From positions 96,001 through 160,000 of the forward strand of contig JAEOTA010000081.1 of assembly GCA_016840085.1 (NCBI GenBank): 64,000 nucleotides of DNA. The letters run 5' to 3'. Shown in pieces: positions 6,951 through 36,328 of the stretch. A model generated the notes under the pieces. That model saw only the letters and a list, made by a program, of their open reading frames with translations, had not been told where the DNA came from and ran no database searches. The translations under genes were made by a program, and so were the position numbers. Numbering within the stretch: the first letter of the stretch is position 1; every line of letters starts with the position of its first letter. Source of the DNA: Promethearchaeota archaeon. GTDB taxonomy: Archaea > Asgardarchaeota > Lokiarchaeia > Sigyniarchaeales > SOKP01.

Positions 6951-7066
6951 TAGTTTGAGTAATTTTAATTCAATTATAAGTCTGTGTACTTTCTAAGAAA
7001 TAAAATTTTAGTCAATATTTAATTCTAATATTTCGTTTTTTAGAATTATTTAATGTTATTTTCTGA

Positions 7067-8728
7067 ATGGTTACTTTAATGACTTATGATGACAAGGATG
7101 AAACTGAAAAAATTACAAGTGAACATAGAAATCTCGCAAAAAATTCTTTTTACTCAATTTTAAATACTTATGGCACTTTTTTATTTACTTTAATTATAAC
7201 TTTTTTTATTGCTAGATTAATTTCTAAGGAAGCGTGGGGATATCTAATTCTAGCAAATTCTTATATTCTTATTATTACAATAATTCTAACTTTTTTACCG
7301 CCTGGCTTAAACCAAACATTAAATTATTTTATTCCACGTTATTACGCTTTAAACCAAATAAGCAGATTGAAGTCGCTAATAAAGTACTCACTTATTTTAA
7401 AAATCATATTTTTAATTCCTGTGTTTTTTATAAGTTTTTTACTTTTTATTTTTTTATCAGATTTATTTGCATTAAATCTGACAGAGGAAAATTTAAACCT
7501 TTTATTTCTATTATCTCCTCTTATAATCATTAATAGTTTGGAAATTATATTTAATTCTATTAATCAAGGGTTCAACAAATATAACCTTCTTTTTATTTTG
7601 CTAATACTAAAATACTCAATATATATTGGGTTTTTAGCTTATTTTTTTTTCTTTCTTAAGACTATTACTCTTGAAACCCTAGTTATTACTAACGTTATTG
7701 CTTCTTTAATTTCTTTTATATTGAACTTCTTAATTATTTTAAAAATATATATTAAAATTAAAACTGATAAACAAATATCAAAATTTTCTAAAGAAGATCT
7801 ACAAAGAATTATAAAATATGGTATTCCCGTCAGAGTAGGGAAATTTTTAACTGAAATTTGGGTTGAAATCCAAACTCAAGCAATAAGTATATTTGAATCA
7901 TCAGACCAAATAACAGGTTTTAACATATCAAGAACATATTTATCTATCTCTGTAAATATTTTAGCTTCTTTATCATCTCCATTAACGATTTCTTTTTCAA
8001 GAATTATTGCTAAAAATGGAACAAATCGTATTGAATCATTATATAATCTTTTTGTAAAATACTCTTTATTTATGTATTTACTAATAACTGGTATCTTATA
8101 CTACGTAGTAGATTTTTTTATTGTTGTAATATTAGGAGAGACTTATTTAGTTTATTCAGAGCTCATAAAAATCTATCTCTTTTCTTATTTATTCTTGATC
8201 TTTGCTAGTCCATTTGACGCTCTCATGTTAGCTGAAAATAAGGCAAAATATATTGCCCAAATTAGGTTTTATGGTTTGTTGGTACGGGCACCACTATTTT
8301 TTATTTTATTAATAAATTTTGGTATGATTCCTGCCTTTTATGGAATTTTAATTAGTAATTTCTTATATGGCATTGGTTATTTGTTGTTCACGATTAAAAT
8401 TGGTAGGATAAAATTAAACTTTAAAAACATATTCTTTCAATATATTATATATTTCGTTTCTTTGGGTATTTCAATGATTCTACACATTTTTTTTGTTAAT
8501 AAGTGGAATTTTTTGATATTAAAGCAGTTAAATCTTCTCTTTTTTCAAAATTTTTATTTCTTATCATTAATTATTTTTATTTTTATTTTCATTCTCTTAA
8601 GTGTGGTTTTCAAGGTTTTTACAAAGAACGATATTGAGAATTTAAAAGGTTTCTTTAATAAGGAGAAAAAATTACATAGGTTTAGTAATAAAGTCTTAAA
8701 GATATTAAAAAAGATCTTTAGAGATTAA
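7067..8728 (+). CDS. Oligosaccharide flippase (Wzx/MOP family)
   Basis: 553 aa with about 14 TM segments; LAKNSFYS...IARLISKEAWG N-terminus typical of Wzx/RfbX. Confidence 0.85.
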   Translation: MVTLMTYDDKDETEKITSEHRNLAKNSFYSILNTYGTFLFTLIITFFIARLISKEAWGYLILANSYILIITIILTFLPPGLNQTLNYFIPRYYALNQISRLKSLIKYSLILKIIFLIPVFFISFLLFIFLSDLFALNLTEENLNLLFLLSPLIIINSLEIIFNSINQGFNKYNLLFILLILKYSIYIGFLAYFFFFLKTITLETLVITNVIASLISFILNFLIILKIYIKIKTDKQISKFSKEDLQRIIKYGIPVRVGKFLTEIWVEIQTQAISIFESSDQITGFNISRTYLSISVNILASLSSPLTISFSRIIAKNGTNRIESLYNLFVKYSLFMYLLITGILYYVVDFFIVVILGETYLVYSELIKIYLFSYLFLIFASPFDALMLAENKAKYIAQIRFYGLLVRAPLFFILLINFGMIPAFYGILISNFLYGIGYLLFTIKIGRIKLNFKNIFFQYIIYFVSLGISMILHIFFVNKWNFLILKQLNLLFFQNFYFLSLIIFIFIFILLSVVFKVFTKNDIENLKGFFNKEKKLHRFSNKVLKILKKIFRD

Positions 8729-8741
8729 GAAATAATATTTA

Positions 8742-9986
8742 TTATATTATATATTTTAAAAACAGATTTAGTTTATTCAATAGTTTTGTAAAAAGAAAAT
8801 CAATTAAAATTCGAGTGTATTTATAATTCTGCCCTAAACTCAGATAATATTGAAGTAATTTTAATTTAATTTTATCTAAATAATTTACTTTATAAGATTT
8901 AACTCTAATTGGATATAATGATTTATTTTTAGCTAAAACCCTAGCATATAAGAAATTTTTATATTTTTTCTTAATATTTTGAGATAATAATATTTTTACC
9001 AATTTCTCTTCCTTCAGATCGAAAATTGAAGCAAACGACTCTATAATTTCTTTACCTTTTGATGTTCTAATTATGATATTAGAGTTACCTTCCTTATTTT
9101 GTTTTTTTTTTATATAACAATCTCCGAAAGAAATATCTGATAACCTATTCAGCTTATCAAAACAAAAAAGGCATCTATTCAAATTAAAATATTTTTTAAG
9201 TGATATTCGAATAGTTCTATCTAAAATTAAACTTCGACCAGAATTAAACACAATTTTTGAATGTCCTGGCCACCCATATTTTTCTTTTGTGCGATAATAG
9301 AACTCATCAGTATTTTCCTTAGATTTACCATAAAGGTCGTTAATAATTTTAAGAAAATTAAAGTTTAAGGTGGCATCACAGAATAATCCTAGAAAAAGTA
9401 AATTTTTTTCTAGTATTTTGTTTTTTCTTATAAATTTTTTGATACCCAATATTTGACAAGGGGTTCCAACGATAATATATTTTTTTTTATCCTTCTCTTT
9501 TAAAATTTCAATAACATTATAAACAGAAGCAGGGATATATTTTGATCCAGCAGATTTAATAATTTCACCAATATCATTAGACATTGCTAAACGTGCGGGG
9601 CGATCATTAGATTTTTGAAATTTAAGGACAAAAGCAGCATCAAATTCTCGATTTTTAATTAATTCAACTATTAATTTTGTAACCAAACCTCCACTTGTTG
9701 ATAATTTTCTGATTTGATTATTTTTACAAAAGCCACTAAAACACTCTATTGAATTTTGTTTGATAATATCCATAAAATTATCTTCTTCCATTAAATCCAG
9801 AGTAAAAATGTCAATACCTGGACAAACTTCTAAACAAATACCACACATATTACACAGATTTTCATTAACTTCTGGGATAAACTGTCCTCTTAATGATCTC
9901 ATAGAAATAGCATTTTCAGGGCAAGCTGAGCTACAAATTTCACAGGATACACATAAATCTAGTGCGACAGTTTTTGTAATATTCAT
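8742..9986 (-). CDS. Ferredoxin + coenzyme F420 hydrogenase/dehydrogenase beta-subunit (FrhB) family oxidoreductase
   Basis: Two CxxCxxCxxxCP motifs, STSGGLVT, GSKY, VGTPCQ, GLFC, RCLFCFD and SDISFGD. Confidence 0.9.
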   Translation of the reverse strand: MNITKTVALDLCVSCEICSSACPENAISMRSLRGQFIPEVNENLCNMCGICLEVCPGIDIFTLDLMEEDNFMDIIKQNSIECFSGFCKNNQIRKLSTSGGLVTKLIVELIKNREFDAAFVLKFQKSNDRPARLAMSNDIGEIIKSAGSKYIPASVYNVIEILKEKDKKKYIIVGTPCQILGIKKFIRKNKILEKNLLFLGLFCDATLNFNFLKIINDLYGKSKENTDEFYYRTKEKYGWPGHSKIVFNSGRSLILDRTIRISLKKYFNLNRCLFCFDKLNRLSDISFGDCYIKKKQNKEGNSNIIIRTSKGKEIIESFASIFDLKEEKLVKILLSQNIKKKYKNFLYARVLAKNKSLYPIRVKSYKVNYLDKIKLKLLQYYLSLGQNYKYTRILIDFLFTKLLNKLNLFLKYII

Positions 9987-10017
9987 AGTTTCAATAATGA
10001 AATTAAATGTTTTCTCT

Positions 10018-11370
10018 TTATTCTTGAATATATTTAGTGATTATATCAAAACAATTTCTCGTTTTTAAAATAGATTCAAACCTTGACTTAATTTTTTCCT
10101 TTTCATGCTGAAAATTTAGTAACATTTTTTCTAGGCTTTTATCTAGTATTTCAATATTTAAAAGATCCCTAATATCATAATAATAATCAGCTTGTTTGAA
10201 ATATTCTAATAACTCGTAATATTTTACTGCCCACCCGATAACAATAGCAGGTACACCGTTCTTATATGCATGAATAATAGAATGATAACGCGAAGCAATG
10301 ACAAAATCAAATTTTTTTATAAGATTTTCAATTTCAATAACATTTAAATCGTCTGAGATTAAATAGATTCTTTCATTATTTGTCAAGAGATTTTTAATTT
10401 TTTCACATATTTCAACATCTCCATTTGAATGCCGTAAAATATAGACATTTTTCTTGGCTTTCATCAATTTCTTTAATATATGGGAGTAGATACTGTAAAT
10501 TTTTTCAGTTTTTATTCTTTCAATAACCATTCTGTTAGGAATTATACAAACAGAATTAGGGAGAATATTATAATCTTTACTTTTTATTTCTTCTCTATAA
10601 ATATTTGATAAATTATAACCTTCATTTTGAATGACGATATCAAATGTTTTCTTGATATTTATGTTCTTAAATTGACTTAAATATCTTAATCCATCATATT
10701 CCCTAGAAAAAATTACTTTTGGGTATTTCAAATAGTATTTTGCTAACGGATAGAAAAATATTCTATTTTTAAATGAAAAATTAAATGGTCCAATAGATTG
10801 GGGAAAAATTAAATAAGGAATTTCTTGCTTTTTAGCAATAATTATATCTAAAATATAAAAAATCCAATAATTTTGGTCAAATTGCGAAGAAAATCTATAT
10901 CCACTGATATCAATTATAAGGGCCGTATTTTCAATTATATTTTCTATTTTGGTATCAAAAAGACTACGTTTAAAAGTTTTTATAAAATATTTGTGCAAAA
11001 TACATGAGAGTAAGATTCTATGCCAATTTGTCCAAGGTGTAATATTAAACTTGTATTTATAGCTTTCAATTGTCTCAAATTCGAAAATAGAAAATAAATA
11101 GAATTTCTTATTCGGAAATTTTCTCTTCATTTGATCCACTACGGTAAATGTCATTGCCTGAGCACCTTTATTAGCAAGACTTCCACCAACTATAATTATA
11201 TTATTTCTACTCTTATTAGAAATGTTTATTTTTCTTTTTTTCCAAATTAAGTTAAAACCTGTTTCTATGAGTAGAATTATAGGCAAAATAAAATTTAAAA
11301 AAACGTTTCTAATTATTTCTACACATTTTGTTAAGTTCTCAGATATTCTTCTCATAAAATAAGAAATCAT
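10018..11370 (-). CDS. Polysaccharide pyruvyltransferase family (WcaK/CsaB-like)
   Basis: NKGAQAM, PQSIGPF, SRE and ASRYHSIIHAYKNGVPAIVIGWAVKY motifs. Confidence 0.9.
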   Translation of the reverse strand: MISYFMRRISENLTKCVEIIRNVFLNFILPIILLIETGFNLIWKKRKINISNKSRNNIIIVGGSLANKGAQAMTFTVVDQMKRKFPNKKFYLFSIFEFETIESYKYKFNITPWTNWHRILLSCILHKYFIKTFKRSLFDTKIENIIENTALIIDISGYRFSSQFDQNYWIFYILDIIIAKKQEIPYLIFPQSIGPFNFSFKNRIFFYPLAKYYLKYPKVIFSREYDGLRYLSQFKNINIKKTFDIVIQNEGYNLSNIYREEIKSKDYNILPNSVCIIPNRMVIERIKTEKIYSIYSHILKKLMKAKKNVYILRHSNGDVEICEKIKNLLTNNERIYLISDDLNVIEIENLIKKFDFVIASRYHSIIHAYKNGVPAIVIGWAVKYYELLEYFKQADYYYDIRDLLNIEILDKSLEKMLLNFQHEKEKIKSRFESILKTRNCFDIITKYIQE

Positions 11371-13866: not shown

Positions 13867-15084
13867 ATGTTTAGGTTGTTGAAAAAGATTAAATATTTCT
13901 TGAATTTTTTATTAGATTTTATTTCTAAAAAATTAGATATGGATATTGGACATTTAATAACATATTTCTTATCAACTTTATATAGCAATAATCAAGTTAA
14001 AAATAAGTTATTAATTTTTGGAAGTACTAATGGAAAACAATTTCTAGGTAATAGTAAAGATCTCTTTCTTTATCTTACCAAGCATTCAAATTATCATTGT
14101 GTTTGGATAACTGCCTCCAAACAAGTATTTGAAAATTTGAAAAAACAAAATTATAACGTTGTTTTAAATCGAGATTGGTTTAGGGCAATCAAAATTTTAA
14201 AAATGGCAAATTATATTTTTATCACGCACGGTTTTGGAGATATCGCATGGATTAAATTTTCACCAAAAACAAAATTCATTCATTTAGAGCACGGAACCGC
14301 ATTAAAAAAACAAGGATTTGATTTTCTAGAAAAGAAATACAATATATTTCAAAAAATCCTATTTGAAAAATTAGCTAAGAGGATAGATTATATGATTGTT
14401 CCATCAGAAGAAGCAAAAAAATTAAAAATGTCGTGTTATCATTTACCTTCTAATAAGTTTATTATAAGTGGTTATCCTAGAAACGATATCCTTATAAATT
14501 ATACAAAAAATTTGCAGGAAACTATTAAAGAGAAATTAAATCTTAAAAAAGATCATGAAATTTTGTTATATGCGCCAACATATAGAAGAGAATATGAATA
14601 TGAAAGTTCTATAAACAAAATTTTCCTTGAAAAATTAGATCAGTTTTTAATAAAGGAAAAAAAGATTTTCTTATATAAACCTCATCCTTTTTCAGAAAAA
14701 ATAGAAACAGAGATTTATAAAAATATTATATCTATTTCACCTAAGATAAACATCTCGGACTTATTAATAATTACAGATCTATTAATCACCGATTATTCTG
14801 GTGTTTTTTTTGATTATCTCCTTACTTTACGACCAATCGTGTTTTTTAGCTACGATTTAGACATATATAAAGACGCTCGAAATTTTTATTATGATTATGA
14901 ATCTTTTGTTCCTGGACCAATAGCCAAAACTGGAGATGAATTAATATTAATATTAAAAAATATTAACGATTGGAACAAAAAGTATGAGAAAAAGAGAAAA
15001 ATAATTCATAATAGGTTTAACAAATATTCCGATGGAAACTCAAGGCAGAGAATCATCAAATTTTTAGATTTAAAATTAAATTAA
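13867..15084 (+). CDS. CDP-glycerol/ribitol:glycerophosphotransferase family (TagB/TagF-like)
   Basis: HGTALKKQG, GYPRND, LYAPTYR, KPHP and DLLITDYSGVFFDY motifs. Confidence 0.9.
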   Translation: MFRLLKKIKYFLNFLLDFISKKLDMDIGHLITYFLSTLYSNNQVKNKLLIFGSTNGKQFLGNSKDLFLYLTKHSNYHCVWITASKQVFENLKKQNYNVVLNRDWFRAIKILKMANYIFITHGFGDIAWIKFSPKTKFIHLEHGTALKKQGFDFLEKKYNIFQKILFEKLAKRIDYMIVPSEEAKKLKMSCYHLPSNKFIISGYPRNDILINYTKNLQETIKEKLNLKKDHEILLYAPTYRREYEYESSINKIFLEKLDQFLIKEKKIFLYKPHPFSEKIETEIYKNIISISPKINISDLLIITDLLITDYSGVFFDYLLTLRPIVFFSYDLDIYKDARNFYYDYESFVPGPIAKTGDELILILKNINDWNKKYEKKRKIIHNRFNKYSDGNSRQRIIKFLDLKLN

Positions 15085-23429: not shown

Positions 23430-25172
23430 ATGTCTTCTAATGATAATTTAAAAAAAGAATATCTTAGATTCGGAATAATGTGCGATGATCTCTCATTCAA
23501 CAAATTTCAAATCAAAACAATAAAAAATATTTTAGAATTAGATTATGTAGCCTTAAAATTAATAATAATTAATAATGGCCCAAAAAATAAAATAAAAAAG
23601 AATAAAGGTTTCTTTTATTATTTGAATCATTTTATATATGGGATATATAACCATTTAAATGGACCAGAAATTCTTGAACGAATAGATTGTTCTAATTTTT
23701 TTCAAAAAATACCTAAAATTAATTGTAAATATAAGTTAAAGGGAAAATATTCTCAATACTTCTTAAAAAAAGATATTGAACAAATAAAATCTTACAAACT
23801 CGATTTTATTTTAAGATTTGGATTCAATATAATTCGGGGAGAGATTTTAAAAACAGCAAATTATGGTGTTTGGTCTTTCCATCATGGTGATGAGATGAAA
23901 TATAGGGGAGGGCCTCCCTGTTTTTGGGAAATATATTATTCAGATCCTATTACTGGTTGTGTTTTACAGAGATTAACAAACATATTAGATGGAGGGATAA
24001 TTCTTAAAAAAGGATATTTTATTACTCAACTTCTTTCTAGCTTTAAAAAGAATAGACAAAATTTGTATAAAAGTACCATTAATTGGCCAAAACAAGTATG
24101 CATAGATATTCATAATGGTAATGCTAATTATCTTTTAAACAAGCCCAGTAAATCTAATGCATCAATATATCGGGCACCAAAGAATAATGAAATGGGAAGA
24201 TATTTTTTAAATCGTTTAAAATATTTTATAAAATATTACAAAGCAACGTTTCTAAAATTTCCCCTATTAATTAGAAGAGAATTTTGGAATATAGGAATTA
24301 TTAATCAACCTATTGAAAATGTTTTAGATAATAATTCTAAATTTTTTGATAAGGTTAAATGGGTATCAAAAATCTTCGATTTTAAGTTTAGAGCAGATCC
24401 ATTTGGGATTAAATATAAAGGGAACTATTATATTTTCTTTGAAGAATATGATTATAAAAAAGAAAATGGACATATCTCTTGTGTAAAAATTAAGAAAAAC
24501 GGAGATTTAACAAATCCGTCTATTGCAATAAATCCAAAAGAACACTTATCTTATCCTTTCTTATTTAAATATAAGGAAGAAATTTATTGTCTACCAGGAA
24601 GAAAAAAATATGGAATTAGTTTATACAAAGCAATTGATTTTCCAAAAAAATGGAAAAGACAATGTGTTTTACTTGAGAATAAAAGGTTTTCTGACAGTAC
24701 AATTGTAAAATATAAGAATTTATGGTGGCTTTTTACATATAACCATGAAGATTGTGGGTTATATTTATTTTATTCCAAGAATCCTCTTGGAAATTGGGCA
24801 CCCCATAAGAAAAATCCTGTTAAACAAGATATTAGATCTTCAAGACCTGCTGGAACTTTATTTTTTAAAGATAATTTCCTATTTAGACCTTCAATGGATT
24901 TATCAATTCATTATGGAAGACAAATCTTTTTAAATAGAATAAAAAAGTTAAATAAGAATGATTTTAAAGAAGAGACTATTAAAATTATTGAGCCTAAAGA
25001 AAATTGGAAATATCAAAAAGGTATACATACCCTATCTAGAATAGATCAAAAATATACACTGATAGATGCAAAAGATTATAAAATCATGCCCCATTCTTTA
25101 TCTCAGTTAAGAAAATTCATAAAAACTGAAATTAAGAATATATCTATGAGTTTTATCCATTCAAACAATTGA
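23430..25172 (+). CDS. Formyltransferase-like N-terminal domain + beta-propeller (GINT1-N/GH43-like) fusion
   Basis: WSFHHGDEMKYRGGPPCFWE...LQRLTNILDGG parallels the formyltransferase HxSLLPxYRG/D-x-G motifs. The C-terminal half has ADPF, HLSYPFLF, DSTI, RPAG and GIHT blades. Confidence 0.7.
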   Translation: MSSNDNLKKEYLRFGIMCDDLSFNKFQIKTIKNILELDYVALKLIIINNGPKNKIKKNKGFFYYLNHFIYGIYNHLNGPEILERIDCSNFFQKIPKINCKYKLKGKYSQYFLKKDIEQIKSYKLDFILRFGFNIIRGEILKTANYGVWSFHHGDEMKYRGGPPCFWEIYYSDPITGCVLQRLTNILDGGIILKKGYFITQLLSSFKKNRQNLYKSTINWPKQVCIDIHNGNANYLLNKPSKSNASIYRAPKNNEMGRYFLNRLKYFIKYYKATFLKFPLLIRREFWNIGIINQPIENVLDNNSKFFDKVKWVSKIFDFKFRADPFGIKYKGNYYIFFEEYDYKKENGHISCVKIKKNGDLTNPSIAINPKEHLSYPFLFKYKEEIYCLPGRKKYGISLYKAIDFPKKWKRQCVLLENKRFSDSTIVKYKNLWWLFTYNHEDCGLYLFYSKNPLGNWAPHKKNPVKQDIRSSRPAGTLFFKDNFLFRPSMDLSIHYGRQIFLNRIKKLNKNDFKEETIKIIEPKENWKYQKGIHTLSRIDQKYTLIDAKDYKIMPHSLSQLRKFIKTEIKNISMSFIHSNN

Positions 25173-25495: not shown

Positions 25496-25877
25496 ATGGA
25501 TTCTTTCATAAACAAATTAAAGCTAAAATCCCAAGAATATTTTGCGAATTATAAATTCGCAGATTATTTATCTTTCCTTAGGCAATCTCAATTTTTTAGC
25601 AATAAAAAAATATTAGAAATTCAAAACAATAAACTAAGAAACCTATTAAATTATAGTTCTCAAAATATAAGGTCTTATAACAATCTTTTTAAGAAAATCA
25701 ATATAAAACCATCAGATATTAAATCAAATGAAGATTTAACAAAACTTCCTGTAATGACAAAAGATAGCTATAGAAATGATTTCCCAGATAAATTTGTAAA
25801 TTTAAGAGCAAATAAACAAGATCTCTTTTTAAATTTTACATCAGGATCAACTGGTAATCCCTTTAAATTTTTTGAAA
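25496..25877 (+). pseudogene. Phenylacetate-CoA ligase/CapK family, N-terminal fragment
   Basis: QNNKLRNLL...Y...DLTKLPVMTK...FTSGSTGNPFKF (ANL P-loop), then an abrupt switch to GT4 sequence. Confidence 0.85.
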
Positions 25878-26416
25878 ATCATATATAGGTTATATGATTT
25901 TTCAGCAAAAAATTATGGGAATGATTGATTTTCTACATGGGTTTAACTTATTTTTAGAAGATCTAGATGAAGATGAAAGAAAGAAAATTAAATTATTATA
26001 TATAGGAGAGGAAAGGTACATTTCTAATTTGGAAAGAAAAATAGGTGAACTTAATTTAAAAAATAATACTTTTATATTAGGAAAAAGAAAAGAAATAAAA
26101 GAAATATTAGCTATTATGGATTTATTAGCCTTAACATCTTATATAGAAGGATTTCCAAATGTTATATTGGAAGCAATGGCTTCAATGGTTCCATGTTTAG
26201 CAACTGATGTAGGAGAAGTTAAATTTATTATAAGCGACACAGGATATATTATCGAACCAGGAGATGTTAATAATAAAAAAAAAGAAGTTAAATGAATTTC
26301 TTAATTTATCAGTAGAAGAACGAAATAAATTGGCAGAAAAAGCATTTGTTAGAGTAAAATATCATTTTGATATTAATTCAGTTGGAAAAAAGTTGATTAA
26401 CCTATATTCTTTTTAA
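25878..26416 (+). pseudogene. 3' half of a GT4, near-copy of 22375-22760, frameshifted
   Basis: Nucleotide near-identity to 21739..22929 starts at atcatatatagg. After a shift in the A-run near 26275-26283 the frame reads KKLNEFLNLSVEERNKLAEKAFVRVKYHFDINSVGKKLINLYSF*. Confidence 0.85.
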
Positions 26417-27837: not shown

Positions 27838-29046
27838 ATGAAAATTGCTGTAATAACAAATCACATACCTTCTAAATGGGCACATAGTATAAACACCATG
27901 AAAATTGCTGAAGGTTTATACAGATTAGGTCATTTAATTGAAGTTTTAGTTGTTCAGAGAGCAAAAGAAGATCTCAATAGGTTAATCATTAAAGATATTC
28001 ATAATTTTTATGGAATCAATAAAAAAATTAAAATAAAATTTTTTAGAGATTATTCCATTAATTATTTTAAAGAAATTAGATACACTGGACCAATTTTAAA
28101 TAAATTATTTGATCTTTTTGCTAGAATTATACCTAAATTAGCGGTTCGTCTTGATCCTGAAAAGAGAATTAGTAAATATTGTAAAAAAAGTGATTTTGAT
28201 TTAACTTTTTGTCGTTCAGCTTATCACACAGTTTATTATAACGTTATTAATGAAATCCCTACAATACTCGATTTACATGGATATCTCATTCCTGAATTAA
28301 TTCATATTGTAAAATTAACAAATAGTAAATATTTTAAGGGAATAATGACGTTAAATGAATTTCTGAAACAAAAACTTATACAAATTGGTTTTCATGCTGA
28401 AAAAATTGTATTTATGGAAAATGCAGTTGATATAGACAAGTTTGATAGAATTACAAATGACAAGAAAAAGCTTAGGAAAAAACTAAATTTACCCTTAAAC
28501 AAGATAATAATTTTATATTCAGGAATTATATCTGATGACAGAGGAATTGATATTATATTAAATGCTTCTAATTATTTGGATGCTGAAAATATTTCATTTT
28601 ATTTTTTAGGAGTTGGTAAGAGAAAAAATTCAATTAAAAAATGGAAAAATTATATAAAAAGAAATAAAATAGAATCAAACGTTAATTTTTTAGGGTTTAA
28701 ACCAAGAATATTTATTCCATTTTATCTAAAAGCAGCAGATATTCTATTAGCAACATATTCGGCACATTGTATAATTAAAAATTATACATCGCCAGTTAAA
28801 CTTATTGAATATAGGGCTTCAAAAATACCTATAATTGTTACAGAAATAGGAAGGCTTAAAAAATTATGCAATAAAAATGAGTGTTTATTCATTAAAGTGG
28901 ATGATCCGAAAGATTTAAGTGAAAAGATTGAAATCTTACTTACAAATATCGAACTAAGAGATATGATAATTGAAAATGCTTATAATAAAGCAAAGAGATT
29001 TATTCTAGAAAAAAGATCTCAAAAAATTCTTGAATTGTTAAGATAA
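27838..29046 (+). CDS. Glycosyltransferase family 4
   Basis: PSKWAHSINTMK, ENAVD, YSG and TSPVKLIEYRASKIPII. Confidence 0.9.
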   Translation: MKIAVITNHIPSKWAHSINTMKIAEGLYRLGHLIEVLVVQRAKEDLNRLIIKDIHNFYGINKKIKIKFFRDYSINYFKEIRYTGPILNKLFDLFARIIPKLAVRLDPEKRISKYCKKSDFDLTFCRSAYHTVYYNVINEIPTILDLHGYLIPELIHIVKLTNSKYFKGIMTLNEFLKQKLIQIGFHAEKIVFMENAVDIDKFDRITNDKKKLRKKLNLPLNKIIILYSGIISDDRGIDIILNASNYLDAENISFYFLGVGKRKNSIKKWKNYIKRNKIESNVNFLGFKPRIFIPFYLKAADILLATYSAHCIIKNYTSPVKLIEYRASKIPIIVTEIGRLKKLCNKNECLFIKVDDPKDLSEKIEILLTNIELRDMIIENAYNKAKRFILEKRSQKILELLR

Positions 29047-29059
29047 TCAAACAAAAGAT

Positions 29060-30427
29060 ATGAGTGGTTTTCCAATGAAACAATCTATGAATGCTCAATA
29101 TTTTATAAATATTCTAAATAACATATTTGCTAAAATAGAATTTTGTATTTTCAATCTGAAAGATAGATTTCCAAATATTGGAAGATTATTAGCATTTGGA
29201 TGGCATATTGTTTATAGAATTAAAATCAAAATAGAAAAAAAAGCTATACAAATAAAAGCTAAAATACAATATGGTAATGATATATTTGATTTTGATAAAA
29301 TCTATTGGATAAATCCTCATAAAATAAAAAATTATATAACAGTTAAACTCGATAAGCGGGATAATTATTCTAGAATAATAAGTGGTAATTGGGATCGATC
29401 AATAAAGACTTTTGAAGAATTATCAGTTTATAAAGCATTTATAAAAAGATTTAAAGAAGGAAAAAAATGGGAAGAAACTCAATTTTATAATCGCGTACTA
29501 AATGAAGTGATTAGCAGTAAAGAGAAATGGGGTTGTAACAATAAGCAAGCATTAGATGCTAGGTTTAGGGGATTAGATTTATTATATAAGGAGATTAAAA
29601 AAAATGGTTATAAATCACAAAAAGAGATATATTCTTCTAAACGATTATTTGAAAAATTAGAAAAACATGTTATTGATAATGAGGTTGCTATAGCGATTGG
29701 CAGAGGCGGGCAAATTTTATTTGTAGATGGAAGACACAGGCTCTCAATTGCTAAAATGCTCAATATCCCCAAAATTCCAGTTATGATTGCTACAAGACAT
29801 AAAAAATGGATAGATTTTAAGAAAGAATTATATTATTTTTCTAAAAGTCGTCAATCCGAAAAGCTTTATCAAACCCTTACTCATCCTGACCTTCAAGATA
29901 TTCCTTTTCTTCATGGAGATACCCGTTATAATATGATAAAAGAAAATATCTCTCATTCTAAAGGGACTCTTCTTGATATTGGAGCAAACTTAGGATATTT
30001 TTGTCATAAATTTGAGGATGATGGATTTGATTGTTTTGCAGTTGAAAATAATCCTATTTATAAGTATTTTTTAAGAAAATTAAAAAAATCAGAAGAGAAA
30101 AAGTTTAAGATAATTTCAGAATCCATTTTTGATTATAAAAAAGATCAAGACTTAAACTTTGATGTTGTATTGGCTTTAAATATATTTCATCACTTCTTAA
30201 AGACAAAAGAAAATTATATTAATTTAATTAATCTATTAAAAAGAATTAAAACTAATGAGTTTTTTTTTGGAGCACATTTACCAAAGCAACTTCAAAAGAT
30301 AAATGCTTATCGAAATTATAATCCAGATGAGTTTGTAGATATTATAATCAATAATTCCTGTTTAAACAAATCGAAATTACTTGGTAAAACCAGCGATGGG
30401 AGATCACTTTTTAAACTCTCAAAATAA
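29060..30427 (+). CDS. ParB/sulfiredoxin-like domain fused to a class I SAM methyltransferase
   Basis: LYKEIKKNGY...IAIGRGGQILFVDGRHRLSIAKMLNIPKIPV (ParB/Srx DGxHR motif), followed by LLDIGANLGYF...FDVVLALNIFHHF (methyltransferase motif I and beyond). Confidence 0.75.
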   Translation: MSGFPMKQSMNAQYFINILNNIFAKIEFCIFNLKDRFPNIGRLLAFGWHIVYRIKIKIEKKAIQIKAKIQYGNDIFDFDKIYWINPHKIKNYITVKLDKRDNYSRIISGNWDRSIKTFEELSVYKAFIKRFKEGKKWEETQFYNRVLNEVISSKEKWGCNNKQALDARFRGLDLLYKEIKKNGYKSQKEIYSSKRLFEKLEKHVIDNEVAIAIGRGGQILFVDGRHRLSIAKMLNIPKIPVMIATRHKKWIDFKKELYYFSKSRQSEKLYQTLTHPDLQDIPFLHGDTRYNMIKENISHSKGTLLDIGANLGYFCHKFEDDGFDCFAVENNPIYKYFLRKLKKSEEKKFKIISESIFDYKKDQDLNFDVVLALNIFHHFLKTKENYINLINLLKRIKTNEFFFGAHLPKQLQKINAYRNYNPDEFVDIIINNSCLNKSKLLGKTSDGRSLFKLSK

Positions 30428-30611
30428 GATATTTTATTAAAAAACTCTATATGCAAAAGCCCTTACGAGTTTTTTAAAATATAAATAATTTTATGCGAAT
30501 TTTCTCTTAAGGGTAAAAATTTTCATGCAATTTCCCCCAAAAGAAAAGAAATTAAAAGTTTTAGAAGTAGGGAGTGATCTTGAATTTGAAAAAAAAATTA
30601 GATTAATAATA

Positions 30612-30662
30612 ATGGAACATTAGTTATAAATTCACATTACTTGAAGATTTAAGAATACCATA
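30612..30662 (+). repeat. 51-bp direct repeat, copy 1
   Basis: atggaacattagttataaattcacattacttgaagatttaagaataccata; 47/51 identical to 31793..31843. Confidence 0.9.
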
Positions 30663-30725
30663 TTTTTTATTTATTAGTATTAAAGAGTACTAGGGTTTTA
30701 CTTATAATTGAAATAAAAAATAAAT

Positions 30726-31577
30726 TTATTTTTTTAAAAAATAAAACCTTTCATTAGCATTCAATCCGAATTTTTTTATATTTTTTGGTCCTAAATTTTT
30801 AGCATAATCTATAACCCTGACATGAAATCCAACTTTTTCAACCCTTTGTTTAAAATCAAGTCCATATATTCTTACATGATCTTCACGCCCAAAATGAAGT
30901 AAACGATCTTTTGGTTTTAGTATTTTTTGAATTTCATATGTCTTTTTTCTCTCTCTATTTAATGGTATTTGTATTATTCCCCATCCTTTTGTTTTTAATA
31001 CTCTATATAATTCTTTCAAAGCTAAATGATCATCTTTTATATGCTCTAATACGTGAGAACATATTATTACATCAAAAATATTATTCTTAAAGCTGAGGTT
31101 AGTAATATCATTTCGAATTAAAATATTAGAAGAATTAAGATTTGTAGTAATATATCTGATATTGTTATGGTTTCTAAATAAATTTTTTAAACTACTATTT
31201 GGAGTAAAATGCAATAATTTTATATTTCTTGAAAAAAAAGTAGTTTTTGTTTTAAGAAAAATAATTAGAAGTCTATGCCTTTCCAAAGATCCACATATTG
31301 GGCATAATGCTGATTTTCTCATTTTGAAACCATAAGAGTTAAATTTTCTTAAATATCTTCCACAACACGAGCATAAATTTGATTTACCACTCCAAAAATT
31401 AATCTTAATTTTATAGTAGATTATATTAATTAATTTATAAAACCAGCTATTCAGAAAAATAAATTTATAAGATAGATGTAATTTAAATAAGTCTTTAATC
31501 TTCTTAAAGATGGTAATCATTAAATCAATTAAATTGATACGTTTGTTTTTTATTCCTATTTCTTTTAACCCATTCAT
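30726..31577 (-). CDS. Class I SAM methyltransferase-like protein with an N-terminal Zn-ribbon
   Basis: CSCCG...CPICGSLERHR, LLHFTP, FDVIICSHVLEHI and FGREDHVRIYG. Confidence 0.85.
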   Translation of the reverse strand: MNGLKEIGIKNKRINLIDLMITIFKKIKDLFKLHLSYKFIFLNSWFYKLINIIYYKIKINFWSGKSNLCSCCGRYLRKFNSYGFKMRKSALCPICGSLERHRLLIIFLKTKTTFFSRNIKLLHFTPNSSLKNLFRNHNNIRYITTNLNSSNILIRNDITNLSFKNNIFDVIICSHVLEHIKDDHLALKELYRVLKTKGWGIIQIPLNRERKKTYEIQKILKPKDRLLHFGREDHVRIYGLDFKQRVEKVGFHVRVIDYAKNLGPKNIKKFGLNANERFYFLKK

Positions 31578-31792
31578 ATAATCTTTTAAAAATTCAGTGC
31601 ATTAATATTAAAAAATAATTTAAAATTTTAATTTTATATTAAAATATAAATTTGTTAATTTAGATTTTTCATGTGAAAAAATTATAGATATTAAAATTAT
31701 TTTCTCTCTAGTCAAACTTATTTAATATTTAACTTCATTACCTTTTATATTCATTATTTGGATTATAAAGATTAAAATTTCGAGTAATAAAT

Positions 31793-31843
31793 ATGGAAAA
31801 TTAGTCATAAATTCACATTACTTAAAGATTTAAGAATAACATA
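31793..31843 (+). repeat. 51-bp direct repeat, copy 2
   Basis: atggaaaattagtcataaattcacattacttaaagatttaagaataacata. Confidence 0.9.
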
Positions 31844-31941
31844 GTTCTTCATTAAAAATATGAATGTAAAAAAAGATTTGAATTGATTAATGATATTTAA
31901 TTTAATTGTATATCAATTAATTATTCTTTTAGGGAAAATAA

Positions 31942-33943: not shown

Positions 33944-36328
33944 TTGAACATATCTGAACAACTTTTATATAATATTTCAATAAGCATTTCCCAAATATTA
34001 AATTTATATTTAAACAATGTAGAACATAAATTCCCTTTTTATTTTTTATCATTTTTAAAAAATCGAAGAATTCCTCGAAATAATATAAATGCTGTTTTTT
34101 ATTCACTAAAAAAAAATCTTATTAAAAATAATCTTAATTTATTTTTTAATATTGATTTCAAAAAATCAGTTGAAGATAATATCATTAGTACAGTCATTGG
34201 ATTTGAAAATCTTATTAATAATCTTTCAAACGTGTTTAAATCAAAAATATTCTTAAGAAGCGAATTAAAGCAGGCGGATTTAAAGAACCTTTATGGAAAA
34301 TGTGGTGAGCAAAATGAACTAATATCACTGATTCGATATATATACCAATTTAAAAACTATTTCAAAATAGTATTAATTAATGGTAGTATTGGATCAAGAG
34401 ATTATAAACCTGGTTGGAGTGATGTTGACTTATTTATTATTATTAATAATCAATATCTCATTTCTAAAAATAAACTTAGGGATTTAAGAAAAATAACATT
34501 AAATATTAAGAAATTAATTATGACTTATAGTATTCTACAGCTACATGGGGTATATTATTCTTCAGAAGAACAAATGAAGGCAAATTATAATGAATTCTTC
34601 CCTATAGCCTGCTTAGAAACTGGGCAAATCATTAATGACTTGGATAAATTTGAATTAAAAATCCCAAATAATAAAGAATCAGCATTAAACTATTTTAGAT
34701 CAATCTATAAAAATTCAAAACTTTTATACAATCAGATAAAAATAAAGAAATTAGATATTTTCTCACAAATCTTATTGTTTCATAGAATATACTCTTTTCC
34801 ATTTTCATTTTTACAATGCTTAGGATTCAATATTGGAAAAAAAGAGTCATTTAAAGTTCTTACAACAAAATTTCAAGATCTATTTCCAAAAATTTCAGAT
34901 TTTTATAATGAGGTAAATAGGTTTTATCTGAATTGGAAAATAGATAAAATTAGAACATATAAATTTCGTAAATTTTTGAGTCATATCTTTTCTTTAGAAT
35001 TTCTAAATAGAATTTTTCTTCAATGGGAAAAGTCTATTATAAATAAAATAGAAAATCATTTTAAACAATTCCTAAAAAAGAGGATTTTTAATGAATTTAA
35101 CAAGTTCCTTGATATTGCAAATAGTTATATTATAAAAGAATATCCTTCTTATCAGAATCCTTTTAGACCATATTTAGATTACGAATTTTATGAAAAATGC
35201 ATACATAAAATTCAAAAGTTATTTTCTAATATTGATGAAATCATAGCAATTTATAGATTTGGGAGTATCAAAGCTCCCGGTAATTCAGATATAGATTTAA
35301 TATTTGTTGTAAAGAATAATATTCAAGTGTATGACAAGATTGTATATTGCCTTAAAACTAGATTTACTTCTAATGAAAAATTTATAGTGTTTCAACATAA
35401 ACCTTTCGTAATTACGGAAGATATTGCTAAAAACTTAAATTATATTTTACCATGCGAAGAAATAACAAAAATCTATGGAAAAGATATTATCTTTAATATA
35501 ATTTCAAATCCTTATGTAAAATTAGCTATGCTTATTGAATTGTTGATCTTTACAAAACCTATTCCGTTTCCGGTTTTAGTGAATATTCAAGAAGATTTTG
35601 CAAAATCATTACAACAAATTAATACAATGAATTACATAATGAAACAATATTTAGAGATTATTGATTATTTTGATATAGGATCAGAGATTAGCTTCAAATA
35701 TTTAAGAGAATTATTAAAGAAAAATGATTATATTCGAAAAAATATGTATACTTTACCTTTAAACTCGATTAAAACGCATATTGATAATTCTTGTTTAATT
35801 ATGAGAAATTACTTGTTAAGAATTAAATTAGAAATTGCTCATTTTATTGAAAATAATGGTTTCAATCAAAAAATAATAAAAGAATATAAGAGGAAACCTG
35901 TTTTAAGATTTGGGAGTTATTTTTTTATCTTTAATGAAGAAAAACTCAAAAAAATTAATCTTATCAATAATAGATCATATCTTTATAATCCATGGTCCTT
36001 TTATTTCTTTTTTAAAAATCAAGAATGTTTGAAGAAAAAATTTTATAAGGGAATTAAAGAAAGAAATAAGATATTAATCCCCTATTTGAGATATACATTA
36101 ATATATAATAATAATTCAAATTTGTATGTTCCATTTTGGTATCGTGATAAAAAAAGAAATCTTAATGAAATAATATGGAATTTAGTTCCAAAAACTTTAA
36201 AAAATAAGTATCTCTTTTATTTTTATTTCTGGCAAAAAGCTCCTCGACTATATGAAATTATATTATTACCTCTTTTATTATTAAAAAAATTCGCAAAAAA
36301 TCTTTTCCATTATTTGAGTAATATTTGA
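33944..36328 (+). CDS. Protein with two Pol-beta-type nucleotidyltransferase domains
   Basis: INGSIGSRDYKPGWSDVDLFII and YRFGSIKAPGNSDIDLIFV, each an hGS...DxD motif. Start codon uncertain. Confidence 0.7.
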   Translation: MNISEQLLYNISISISQILNLYLNNVEHKFPFYFLSFLKNRRIPRNNINAVFYSLKKNLIKNNLNLFFNIDFKKSVEDNIISTVIGFENLINNLSNVFKSKIFLRSELKQADLKNLYGKCGEQNELISLIRYIYQFKNYFKIVLINGSIGSRDYKPGWSDVDLFIIINNQYLISKNKLRDLRKITLNIKKLIMTYSILQLHGVYYSSEEQMKANYNEFFPIACLETGQIINDLDKFELKIPNNKESALNYFRSIYKNSKLLYNQIKIKKLDIFSQILLFHRIYSFPFSFLQCLGFNIGKKESFKVLTTKFQDLFPKISDFYNEVNRFYLNWKIDKIRTYKFRKFLSHIFSLEFLNRIFLQWEKSIINKIENHFKQFLKKRIFNEFNKFLDIANSYIIKEYPSYQNPFRPYLDYEFYEKCIHKIQKLFSNIDEIIAIYRFGSIKAPGNSDIDLIFVVKNNIQVYDKIVYCLKTRFTSNEKFIVFQHKPFVITEDIAKNLNYILPCEEITKIYGKDIIFNIISNPYVKLAMLIELLIFTKPIPFPVLVNIQEDFAKSLQQINTMNYIMKQYLEIIDYFDIGSEISFKYLRELLKKNDYIRKNMYTLPLNSIKTHIDNSCLIMRNYLLRIKLEIAHFIENNGFNQKIIKEYKRKPVLRFGSYFFIFNEEKLKKINLINNRSYLYNPWSFYFFFKNQECLKKKFYKGIKERNKILIPYLRYTLIYNNNSNLYVPFWYRDKKRNLNEIIWNLVPKTLKNKYLFYFYFWQKAPRLYEIILLPLLLLKKFAKNLFHYLSNI

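Follow-up and report, generated by a model that had tools for sequence, protein, structure and literature searches.

A ParB/Srx-fold domain fused to a WbdD-type methyltransferase in an Asgard archaeon: a fusion that probably adds methyl-phosphate to cell-surface glycans through a putative kinase of a fold without earlier ties to glycans

The window analysed here, a stretch of 64,000 nucleotides from a Promethearchaeota archaeon (contig JAEOTA010000081.1), contains a glycosyltransferase island of about 23 kb, within which lies a gene encoding a ParB/Srx-like domain followed by a WbdD-type methyltransferase domain (Table 1). The gene is real, as homologues reach E 1e-159, one search returned 1059 proteins and homologues at E<=1e-30 form 444 clusters at 50% identity; the database copy of the protein has 450 residues and starts at M6. 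The original prediction had described a DGRHR motif without a helix-turn-helix (HTH) and a family 4 glycosyltransferase (GT4) 13 bp upstream on the same strand, and all three features are confirmed. The GT4 and the fusion gene are likely co-transcribed, and the same order, GT4 and then fusion, recurs in a Nealsonbacteria locus. No ABC transporter was found among the 40 open reading frames scanned in the window.

Table 1. Coordinates in the window of the fusion gene, its domains and motifs, and neighbouring genes of interest.
Feature	Residues	Position	Strand	Basis or remark
Whole gene, ParB/Srx-like + WbdD-type methyltransferase fusion	455 aa	29060..30427	+	ATG start, stop codon included
GT4 glycosyltransferase upstream		27838..29046	+	ends 13 bp before start codon, same strand
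Wzx-type flippase		7067-8728
TagF-like glycerophosphotransferase (in island)		13867-15084
Double nucleotidyltransferase (in island)		33944-36328
N-terminal helical hairpin	1-70	29060..29269	+	AF2 secondary structure, hydropathy, match ranges
ParB/Srx-fold domain, putative NTP-dependent phosphotransferase	76-262	29285..29845	+	model, Foldseek, VIA, profile
Helical insertion splitting the ParB/Srx core	~119-183	29414..29608	+	VIA
DGRHR motif, Box II / P-motif equivalent	223-227	29726..29740	+
RHKKW	246-250	29795..29809	+	R246 38/41; H247, W250 41/41
WbdD-type class I SAM methyltransferase domain	263-455	29846..30424	+	Foldseek, VIA, profile HMM, hhalign
Y270 = WbdD Y16	270	29867..29869	+	hhalign + homologue conservation
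SAM-binding motif I, LLDIGANLG	304-312	29969..29995	+
F376-H377-H378 = WbdD F131-H132-H133	376-378	30185..30193	+
R448 = WbdD R203	448	30401..30403	+	invariant, 41/41 homologues

Family searches with the 455-residue protein detected no HTH or DNA-binding family, and no Pfam or NCBIfam kinase family matched it. A C-terminal dimerisation domain, as in canonical ParB DNA clamps, was not found in the protein either, and the genes around it are glycan genes and not a parS/ParA context. The N-terminal hairpin is amphipathic and, judging by match ranges, variable or missing in distant homologues; we considered it as a transmembrane anchor and rejected this on hydropathy, the 19-residue maximum being about 1.0.

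The methyltransferase domain is a true homologue of the methyltransferase domain of WbdD from E. coli O9a, which ranks first by four independent methods. By Foldseek no solved relative is closer than WbdD (E ~1e-7), which also aligns by VIA over 191 residues (Z 17.5, rmsd 2.6 A, model 253-455 against WbdD 4-210), heads the search of the PDB with the domain's profile HMM (E 1.3e-6) and, taken from E. coli HS, is matched by hhalign over 177 columns with 97.3% probability and E 2.4e-11. Domain-only profiles were required for significant PDB matches, the full-length fusion profile finding WbdD at E 0.3 only, and a profile restricted to the final 76 residues matched no PDB sequence. In WbdD, each of the substitutions Y16F, H132A, H133A and R203A abolishes phosphate methylation (PMC3482155). 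The hhalign alignment pairs these four residues with Y270, H377, H378 and R448, which are kept in 40, 40, 38 and 41 of 41 species-level homologues, respectively; the assignment of R448 to R203 rests on hhalign together with the ranges of the structural alignments. Likewise, the SAM ligands of WbdD, R36 and the acidic D82 that contacts the SAM ribose, are paired with R289 (37/41) and E329 (40/41). The likeness to WbdD that had been claimed for this domain is thus borne out, down to the residues of phosphate methylation, and methyl transfer to a glycan-bound phosphomonoester would be its predicted reaction.

The N-terminal domain has a ParB/Srx fold and is nearest in sequence to the kinase SbnI. 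Its structure model (pLDDT 92.5) finds Srx, SbnI, SerK, KorB, PadC, Noc and ParB as top Foldseek and VIA matches, and the top seven VIA-wide matches together with nearly all of the first 37 Foldseek ranks belong to the ParB/Srx superfamily, although each match taken singly is weak, with Z at most 5.7 and Foldseek E at best 0.03. The best structural match of the core is Srx, at Z 5.7 with 85 of 89 residues aligned. The VIA alignments span positions 8-182 of the model, yet only about 85 residues align, and positions 48-112 resemble only generic helical hairpins. Among PDB sequences the domain profile matched those of SbnI alone (E 3.9e-4 and 5.8e-3), along an alignment that runs across G..DG-HR...IPV..R and sets G224-R-H-R227 against the G-V-H-R of SbnI. 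This agrees with the fold and the resemblance to SbnI and SerK originally proposed. Pfam PF02195 (ParB_N) left the query unmatched at E<=1 and matched one of 33 family members (E 0.013), and a search of the ESM Atlas with this domain returned unnamed clusters only, with scores <=0.85.

Within the domain, G224 is kept in 38, H226 in 35 and R227 in 33 of 41 homologues, the position of D223 holds only D, N or E across the family, and RHKKW is conserved even where G-x-H-R is lost. D112, a candidate counterpart of the catalytic acidic residue that SerK has in its N-terminal segment (E30), is invariant among homologues; the SbnI alignments reach only the motif region. The N-terminal domain is a putative nucleotide-using kinase.

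The family has over 1000 members, all without annotation, which come from Asgard archaea, CPR and other bacteria; whether archaeal or bacterial, they have glycan genes as neighbours. The 138 flanking reading frames from 41 loci include 24 GT4 and 7 GT2 glycosyltransferases, 6-7 Wzx-type flippases, as well as epimerases and methyltransferases, and no ABC family ranks in the top 25 neighbour families of this set. Some members are themselves fused to GT2, GT4 or TagF-like modules, with glycosyltransferase modules in P0195, P0217 and P0239, and the long fusions have spacers that do not form a coiled coil. In nine of nine cases DG-x-HR is retained by stand-alone N-domain proteins, and one of these, from Halobaculum, is encoded in a glycan locus on a plasmid record. 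Homologues, stand-alone N-domains included, occur among glycan genes rather than in phage or DNA-modification surroundings, in keeping with the glycan role first suggested.

Taken together, these features suggest that the fusion probably adds methyl-phosphate to a cell-surface glycan. We infer a kinase activity, its nucleotide, the phosphate acceptor and the identity of the glycan as follows. The substrate would be a cytoplasmic lipid-linked intermediate built by the neighbouring glycosyltransferases. The N-terminal domain would bind ATP, ADP or CTP at the G-R-H-R site and move a phosphate onto a sugar hydroxyl, as SbnI and SerK do onto serine and sulfiredoxin onto sulfinate. The methyltransferase domain would subsequently methylate that phosphate with SAM, with H377, H378, R448 and Y270 holding the phosphate, and the end product would be a methyl-phosphate substituent. 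Such a two-step tailoring, with a ParB/Srx-fold kinase followed by a WbdD-type phosphate methylation, is in our judgement evenly poised. The role would probably be to decorate the glycan or to modify its end, within a pathway that uses a Wzx flippase. The original prediction had envisaged a WbdD-like capping enzyme; since a Wzx flippase is present and both a coiled-coil ruler and Wzm/Wzt are missing, a chain-terminating role is not supported.

Whether the phosphate comes from the fusion itself bears on this scheme, and here the paralogues are informative. Two full-length copies occur at six loci, and at all six the domains have decayed in complementary fashion: the copy with intact methyltransferase motifs is without G-x-H-R, and the partner with G-x-H-R has altered methyltransferase motifs, the exceptions being of degree (G-x-H-R partly eroded at L014, a methyltransferase motif mildly altered to FHK at L010). 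Three further loci combine a full-length copy with a stand-alone N-domain reading frame that keeps H-R, and at L062 and L075 the full-length copy has lost H-R beside such a stand-alone frame. Decay of the methyltransferase affects 5 of 12 paired copies vs 1 of 62 single ones (Fisher p 2.7e-4), where five of the six pairs stem from one duplication, so that independent events number only about three. The two domains are co-dependent in these pairs. Reciprocal decay implies two activities, and the selective retention of H-R in paralogues with a decayed methyltransferase argues for an essential activity of the N-domain site in its own right.

These data weigh against a source of phosphate outside the fusion, which we consider unlikely. 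According to that explanation, the methyltransferase acts on a phosphate or phosphonate installed by another enzyme of the island, the TagF-like protein or the double nucleotidyltransferase, and the ParB/Srx-like domain is not a kinase but binds a nucleotide or pyrophosphate, serving either to place the lipid-linked acceptor or to activate the enzyme. Phosphotransfer enzymes are indeed present in the window, TagF modules are fused to family member P0217, and many proteins of the ParB-CTPase fold merely bind NTPs (PMC12704722). Moreover, 27 of the 74 two-domain members are without H226/R227 and still have an intact methyltransferase, retaining R215, G217, R246, H247 and W250, and in five genomes whose copy has lost H-R no H-R-keeping member was found elsewhere, these being metagenome-assembled genomes that may be incomplete; the methyltransferase can evidently work without the N-domain kinase site in some lineages. 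However, G-x-x-R / H-R is kept in 41 of the 74, besides all of the stand-alone N-domains. In addition, a TagF-like or LicD-like transferase gives a phosphodiester, which by established chemistry accepts methyl groups less readily than the phosphomonoester of WbdD (PMC3482155), and PEP mutase, which bears on the phosphonate variant, does not figure among the common neighbours in the 138 flanking frames from 41 loci.

Rather improbably, the protein could instead methylate sugars in the ordinary way, at O (or N) and without any phosphate, as WbdD of E. coli O8 or archaeal AglP do, with a non-catalytic N-terminal domain serving acceptor binding or oligomerisation. By VIA, class I methyltransferases that differ widely in specificity do share the fold of the methyltransferase domain at Z 14-16, and other plain methyltransferases are common in the loci of the family. 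For the same reason we give no weight to the phosphate methyltransferases MePCE and BCDIN3D as relatives, their Z of about 15 being general class I background. The histidine pair at the position of WbdD H132/H133 is also seen in some non-phosphate methyltransferases, whereas R203 is reported missing from NodS, RebM and the O8 enzyme, and R203, H132 and H133 are all said to be missing from the O8 sugar O-methyltransferase (PMC3482155). All four WbdD residues for phosphate methylation, R203 included, are nearly invariant in the present family; this, the first rank of O9a WbdD by four methods and the two activities implied by the paralogues speak against an ordinary sugar methyltransferase.

A nucleic-acid target is disfavoured and very improbable: phages and prophages are known to be enriched in fusions of ParB-CTPase folds to N6_N4 methyltransferases or Methyltransf_23 (PMC12704722), but no homologue of the present protein was found in 50,697 phage records, the ParB-Methyltransf_23 fusion of that study was rejected as a member of the same family for its different Box II, GHQRTKA, and the present protein combines a WbdD-like methyltransferase, not a DNA methylase, with the lack of an HTH and with glycan-gene neighbours in both domains of life.

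We therefore return to the two-step tailoring and extend it, tentatively and at somewhat less than even confidence, to the family: the ParB/Srx domain would be a sugar-hydroxyl kinase, the third unrelated kinase fold found beside a phosphate methyltransferase; methyl-phosphate would be a common but hitherto unnoticed substituent on surface glycans of Asgard archaea, CPR bacteria, Chloroflexota, Planctomycetota and some haloarchaea; and certain lineages would divide the two activities between paralogues that are obligately paired and have decayed reciprocally. The ParB/Srx fold is known from DNA clamps, sulfiredoxin and two serine kinases, and it would thereby gain a role in carbohydrate chemistry, while a function would be assigned to an unannotated family prominent in Asgard archaea and CPR bacteria. 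To our knowledge, the surface glycans of both groups are almost unknown; methyl-phosphate would be expected on them as an increment of +94 Da and a 31P signal near 1 ppm. Cultured carriers exist, namely Saliphagus sp. JCM 18423 with the full fusion and Halobaculum species with the stand-alone N-domain, which makes the methyl-phosphate reading testable.

The N-terminal domain can be compared with several known enzymes of its superfamily. With SbnI (Staphylococcus) and SerK (Thermococcus) it shares the ParB/Srx core, DG-x-HR followed by L..L......IPV..R, and the lack of a DNA-clamp function. These two enzymes, however, act on free L-serine as kinases of cysteine or siderophore pathways and have a C-terminal helical domain of their own, whereas the present domain has a helical insert of about 65 residues, is fused to a methyltransferase and stands in a glycan-assembly context. 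Srx transfers phosphate from ATP and has G-C-H-R at the equivalent position, but it is a single domain of about 100 residues acting on peroxiredoxin cysteine sulfinate, and its catalytic Cys is missing here. The phage and prophage fusions of ParB-CTPase with Methyltransf_23 or N6_N4 unite the same two superfamilies in one polypeptide, and one of them binds ATP via Box II (PMC12704722); they constitute a different family, phage-associated and with presumed nucleic-acid targets.

With WbdD of E. coli O9a / Klebsiella O3 (PDB 4AZS) the methyltransferase is homologous end to end, at an identity of only about 17-23%, and the SAM ligands are kept together with the H-H and Arg that bind the phosphate and the Y-Q-x-x-x-H-P extension at the N terminus; both proteins also hold a methyltransferase and a kinase, putative in the present case, in one polypeptide encoded in a glycan locus. 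The kinase of WbdD, however, has the eukaryotic-like protein-kinase fold where the fusion has a ParB/Srx fold, and the domain order is reversed, the kinase-like domain coming first here. WbdD carries a C-terminal coiled-coil ruler, whereas the fusion ends with its methyltransferase and has only an N-terminal hairpin of about 60 residues, and the Wzm/Wzt-CBM exporter that reads the cap in the WbdD pathway has no counterpart near the fusion gene, the window containing a Wzx-type flippase instead.

A ParB/Srx domain in place of the usual kinase fold remains, as originally proposed, the favoured reading, but the idea of a kinase swap in a methyl-phosphate enzyme has a precedent in ORF6 of Klebsiella pneumoniae O7, a methyltransferase-kinase chain terminator whose kinase has no relation to that of WbdD although the methyl-phosphate formed is the same (PMC11231755). 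The ORF6 kinase resembles aminoglycoside-kinase-like folds (AmiN, Z 7.4) and not ParB/Srx, CgnL is the nearest relative of the ORF6 methyltransferase, and the protein has a coiled coil and serves an ABC-transporter pathway (PMC11231755). In its combination of a methyltransferase with a non-WbdD kinase module, and in its fusion to glycosyltransferase modules such as those of P0195, P0217 and P0239, ORF6 is nevertheless similar to the present family; if our interpretation is correct, WbdD, ORF6 and this fusion family would reach the same product by convergent module swapping.

The gene studied, an open reading frame of 455 codons in a window with a G+C content of 24.6%, begins 13 bp behind the stop of a same-strand GT4 gene, and both this spacing and the positions of its motifs agree with the original prediction (see table). 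It is a real gene. Homologues number 1059 in one search (best E 1e-159), and when the 50%-identity representatives were searched exhaustively there were 3611 matches, 444 of them at E<=1e-30; they are named "hypothetical" or "class I SAM-dependent methyltransferase", and nothing more functional. Pfam gives weak methyltransferase matches alone (residues 300-394) and no match in the first 260 residues, the family being nearly invisible to its ParB model. The window's genome holds one copy, with both domains intact.

Features of the gene, its protein and their surroundings (kept, number of 41 homologues)
Feature	Position or WbdD counterpart	Remarks
Gene studied	29060-30427 (+)	
GT4 gene	27838-29046 (+)	
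DGRHR	residues 223-227	N-domain
LLDIGANLG	residues 304-312	methyltransferase domain
FDVVLALNIFHHF	ends in F376-H377-H378	methyltransferase domain
Y270	WbdD Y16	kept 40/41
H275-P276	WbdD H22-P23	kept 39/41, 31/41
R289	WbdD R36	kept 37/41
E329	WbdD D82	kept 40/41
H377	WbdD H132	kept 40/41
H378	WbdD H133	kept 38/41
R448	WbdD R203	kept 41/41
G217, H247, W250	N-domain	invariant
R215	N-domain	39/41
R246, G224	N-domain	38/41
H226	N-domain	35/41
R227	N-domain	33/41
D223	N-domain	D, N or E
Glycan-assembly island	13867-36328	
TagF-like glycerophosphotransferase	in island	
GT4 genes (many), GT2 (one)	in island	
Methyltransferases (two) besides the protein studied	in island	
GINT1_N-domain protein	23430-25172	580 aa; match E 3e-39
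Adjacent short ORFs	25496-25888; 25894-26295	130 aa; 133 aa
Direct repeats, 91 nt	30593-30683; 31774-31864	81% identical, 1181 nt apart
Methyltransferase gene between repeats	30726-31577	opposite strand
Protein with nucleotidyltransferase (Pol-beta superfamily) matches	33944-36328	794 aa; Polbeta residues 422-496, NTP_transf_2 residues 145-195
Wzx-type flippase	7067-8728	upstream of island
PMT_2-type GT-C enzyme		upstream of island
Polysaccharide pyruvyl transferase next to FrhB/FdhB-like iron-sulfur protein	8742-11370	upstream of island
Nonulosonic-acid pathway (NeuB, PseC-like, CMP-sugar synthetase, others)		downstream of island
Stand-alone N-domain homologue	L095:8812-9636	Halobaculum sp. 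CBA1158 plasmid pCBA1158-1; 274 aa, DGRNR

Homology of the C-terminal domain to the WbdD methyltransferase, to which the original prediction likened it, is established. When the AlphaFold2 model of the whole protein (pLDDT 85, pTM 0.81) was compared with the PDB, WbdD entries took the top four Foldseek places (E ~1e-7), and VIA-align superposed residues 253-455 on WbdD 4-210, that is, its complete methyltransferase domain (Z 17.5, rmsd 2.6 A, 191 residues aligned), against 16.3 for the next unrelated methyltransferase. In agreement, a profile built for this domain with 41 species-level homologues found WbdD as the best of all PDB sequences (E 1.3e-6), and hhalign matched it to the first 215 residues of WbdD, taken from the 708-aa gene flanked by wbdA and wzt in the E. 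coli HS O9 cluster, with 97.3% probability (E 2.4e-11, 177 columns).

The residue pairing obtained from this hhalign alignment shows that the catalytic residues are kept (see table). In this regard, WbdD with any one of the substitutions Y16F, H132A, H133A and R203A no longer methylates mannose-3-phosphate while its kinase is still active, and neither the O8 enzyme, whose direct target is a sugar hydroxyl, nor other sugar methyltransferases have counterparts of R203, H132 and H133 (PMC3482155). Since a histidine pair at the place of H132/H133 also occurs in NodS or RebM (PMC3482155), the arginine and the tyrosine carry most weight. There is good reason to consider a phosphate or similar anionic group as the acceptor, and phosphate methylation by this domain is strongly indicated.

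The original prediction also assigned a ParB/Srx fold without HTH to the N-terminal domain, and this reading has held. No HTH is present in the protein. With a model of residues 72-265 alone (61-sequence alignment; pLDDT 92.5, pTM 0.87), Foldseek gave no match at E<=0.001, and its list was filled by sulfiredoxin (best E 0.03), SbnI, Noc, KorB, Atu1540, ParB, SerK and PadC. In a VIA search made independently of Foldseek against 48,161 chains, sulfiredoxin led the list (Z 5.7, with 85 of the 89 sulfiredoxin residues aligned), and KorB, human Srx, pNOB8 ParB, PadC, SerK and Atu1540 came next at Z 4.1-4.4. Although the single scores are weak, owing to a helical insert of ~65 residues (~119-183) that divides the core, the list is coherent, and the predicted fold is well supported. 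By sequence, the nearest relative is SbnI: a profile of the N-domain had exactly three matches among PDB sequences, all SbnI (E 3.9e-4, 3.9e-4 and 5.8e-3), with an alignment covering G-x-x-x-x-x-DG-x-HR-x-x-x-x-K-x-L-x-x-x-x-IPV-x-V-x-x-R. D112, in the N-terminal strand region, is invariant. The known non-DNA members of the fold, Srx, SerK and SbnI, all transfer a phosphate to an oxygen nucleophile (PMC5120207; PMC12704722), and NTP binding in the fold generally requires the Box II arginine (PMC12704722); a kinase activity of the N-domain is therefore plausible, with moderate strength.

The fate of the two sites was followed by HMM search and a motif table in 74 non-redundant two-domain members. 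H226/R227 (H-R) and the methyltransferase motifs are both intact in 41, H-R alone is lost in 27, the methyltransferase motifs alone are decayed in four, and both are affected in two. Five of the six copies with a decayed methyltransferase adjoin a paralogue in which H-R is absent and the methyltransferase motifs are intact (loci L004, L014, L015 and L018 in Promethearchaeota, L056 in Anaerolineales), the sixth (L043) appearing truncated; decay thus affects 5/12 paired copies vs 1/62 singles (Fisher p 2.7e-4). A milder case is L010, where the copy keeping H-R changes FHH to FHK only; at L062 and L075 the H-R-keeping partner has no methyltransferase domain at all, and L045 carries an additional stand-alone N-domain. 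As a single duplication, retained in several genomes, gave rise to the Asgard pairs, the tree implies about three independent events. Such a pattern would be expected if the two sites are separate, jointly required activities and the pair acts as a complex.

The alternative that the N-domain serves for binding or as a switch stays alive, because R215, G217, R246, H247 and W250 are still conserved in many H-R-lacking members that have no partner within 6 kb. Among these are members from Lentisphaerota, a clade of Planctomycetes and an Asgard clade with motifs such as G-L-F-I. In five of their genomes, MAGs that may be incomplete, the N-domain profile found no H-R-keeping family member. In these lineages the methyltransferase must either receive its phosphate from another source or act on a different acceptor, and the N-domain would be kept for a non-catalytic role.

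A role in glycan synthesis is well supported, as are the domain identities. The 80 genome loci span Nealsonbacteria, Saccharibacteria, Promethearchaeota, Hermodarchaeota, Bathyarchaeia, Chloroflexota, Planctomycetota, Desulfobacterota, Acidobacteriota, Actinomycetota, Lentisphaerota and the cultured haloarchaeon Saliphagus. Among 138 neighbours (two nearest ORFs per side, 41 loci, Pfam scan) there are 24 GT4, 12 methyltransferases, 7 GT2, 6-7 Wzx-type flippases and 5 epimerases; PEP mutase is not frequent, and the best 25 neighbour families include no DNA-modification, phage or ABC-transporter family. Loci examined individually have the same glycan context, except one short contig with amino-acid racemase neighbours. 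In fused members, which are 1041-2503 residues long, the module is found at one end, next to GT2, GT4 and TagF-like domains. A phage or DNA-modification setting, which would have spoken against the original prediction, was not encountered, and the 50,697 phage records searched contained no homologue.

The N-domain also occurs alone. The Halobaculum homologue (see table), from a cultured haloarchaeon, is surrounded by oxidoreductase, epimerase, flippase, glycosyltransferase and deacetylase genes; 16 further plasmid records match, nearly all haloarchaeal megaplasmids, with the N-domain only among the matches listed, and nine of nine stand-alone metagenomic proteins keep DG-x-HR. Conversely, short forms of 206-284 aa (L052:5857-6603 and L057:5851-6603 in Nealsonbacteria, L079, L080, L082) lack the ParB/Srx-like domain and are made up solely of the WbdD-type methyltransferase domain, in which Y270, FHH and R448 are intact. 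At L076 (6040-7287 with 6518-7168) and L078 (107-1354 with 21-725), overlapping ORFs in different frames encode the two domains; the split could be genuine, or due to a frameshift or an error in sequencing.

Several features of the island itself deserve mention. GINT1_N is the N-terminal domain of glucosamine inositolphosphorylceramide transferase 1, a eukaryotic sphingolipid-glycosylating enzyme, and this eukaryote-named family is found here within a prokaryotic glycan island. The 794-aa protein, encoded directly after a GT4 and a methyltransferase, may transfer a phospho-alcohol or nucleotidyl group to the glycan. The repeats flank one methyltransferase gene just 3' of the gene studied, possibly a cassette or recombination switch. 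The adjacent short ORFs lie on the same strand in different frames, the second being the C-terminal half of a GT4 (Glycos_transf_1), and look like a frameshift-split GT4 or a pseudogene. The pairing of the FrhB/FdhB-like protein with a pyruvyl transferase looks unusual.

Full-text literature searches turned up no account that places a ParB/Srx-like domain in glycan synthesis. A 2025 survey of the ParB-CTPase fold reports fusions to Methyltransf_23, with ATP binding shown for one, a phage-type fusion for which DNA-directed methylation is presumed (PMC12704722); its Box II reads GHQRTKA, whereas the protein studied has DGRHR. Kinase-module swapping in methyl-phosphate enzymes has already been published for Klebsiella O7 (PMC11231755). 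We regard the full two-step mechanism, phosphorylation by the ParB/Srx fold followed by methylation of the phosphate, as evenly poised between right and wrong.

WbdD and Klebsiella O7 ORF6 are chain terminators of ABC-transporter pathways, with a coiled-coil ruler and a cap read by the Wzt CBM (PMC3482155; PMC11231755). Such a capping role, part of the original prediction, is not supported for the protein studied, which has no coiled coil and a short, amphipathic N-terminal hairpin, while the 40 window ORFs scanned include no Wzm/Wzt ABC transporter and the export genes, in the window and near family members, are of Wzx type. More likely, the protein would act ahead of the flipping step, decorating an oligosaccharide or repeat unit that is linked to lipid. 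On account of its hairpin, lack of a coiled coil and Wzx-type export, the protein as a whole falls outside the WbdD type, whereas its methyltransferase domain belongs within it.
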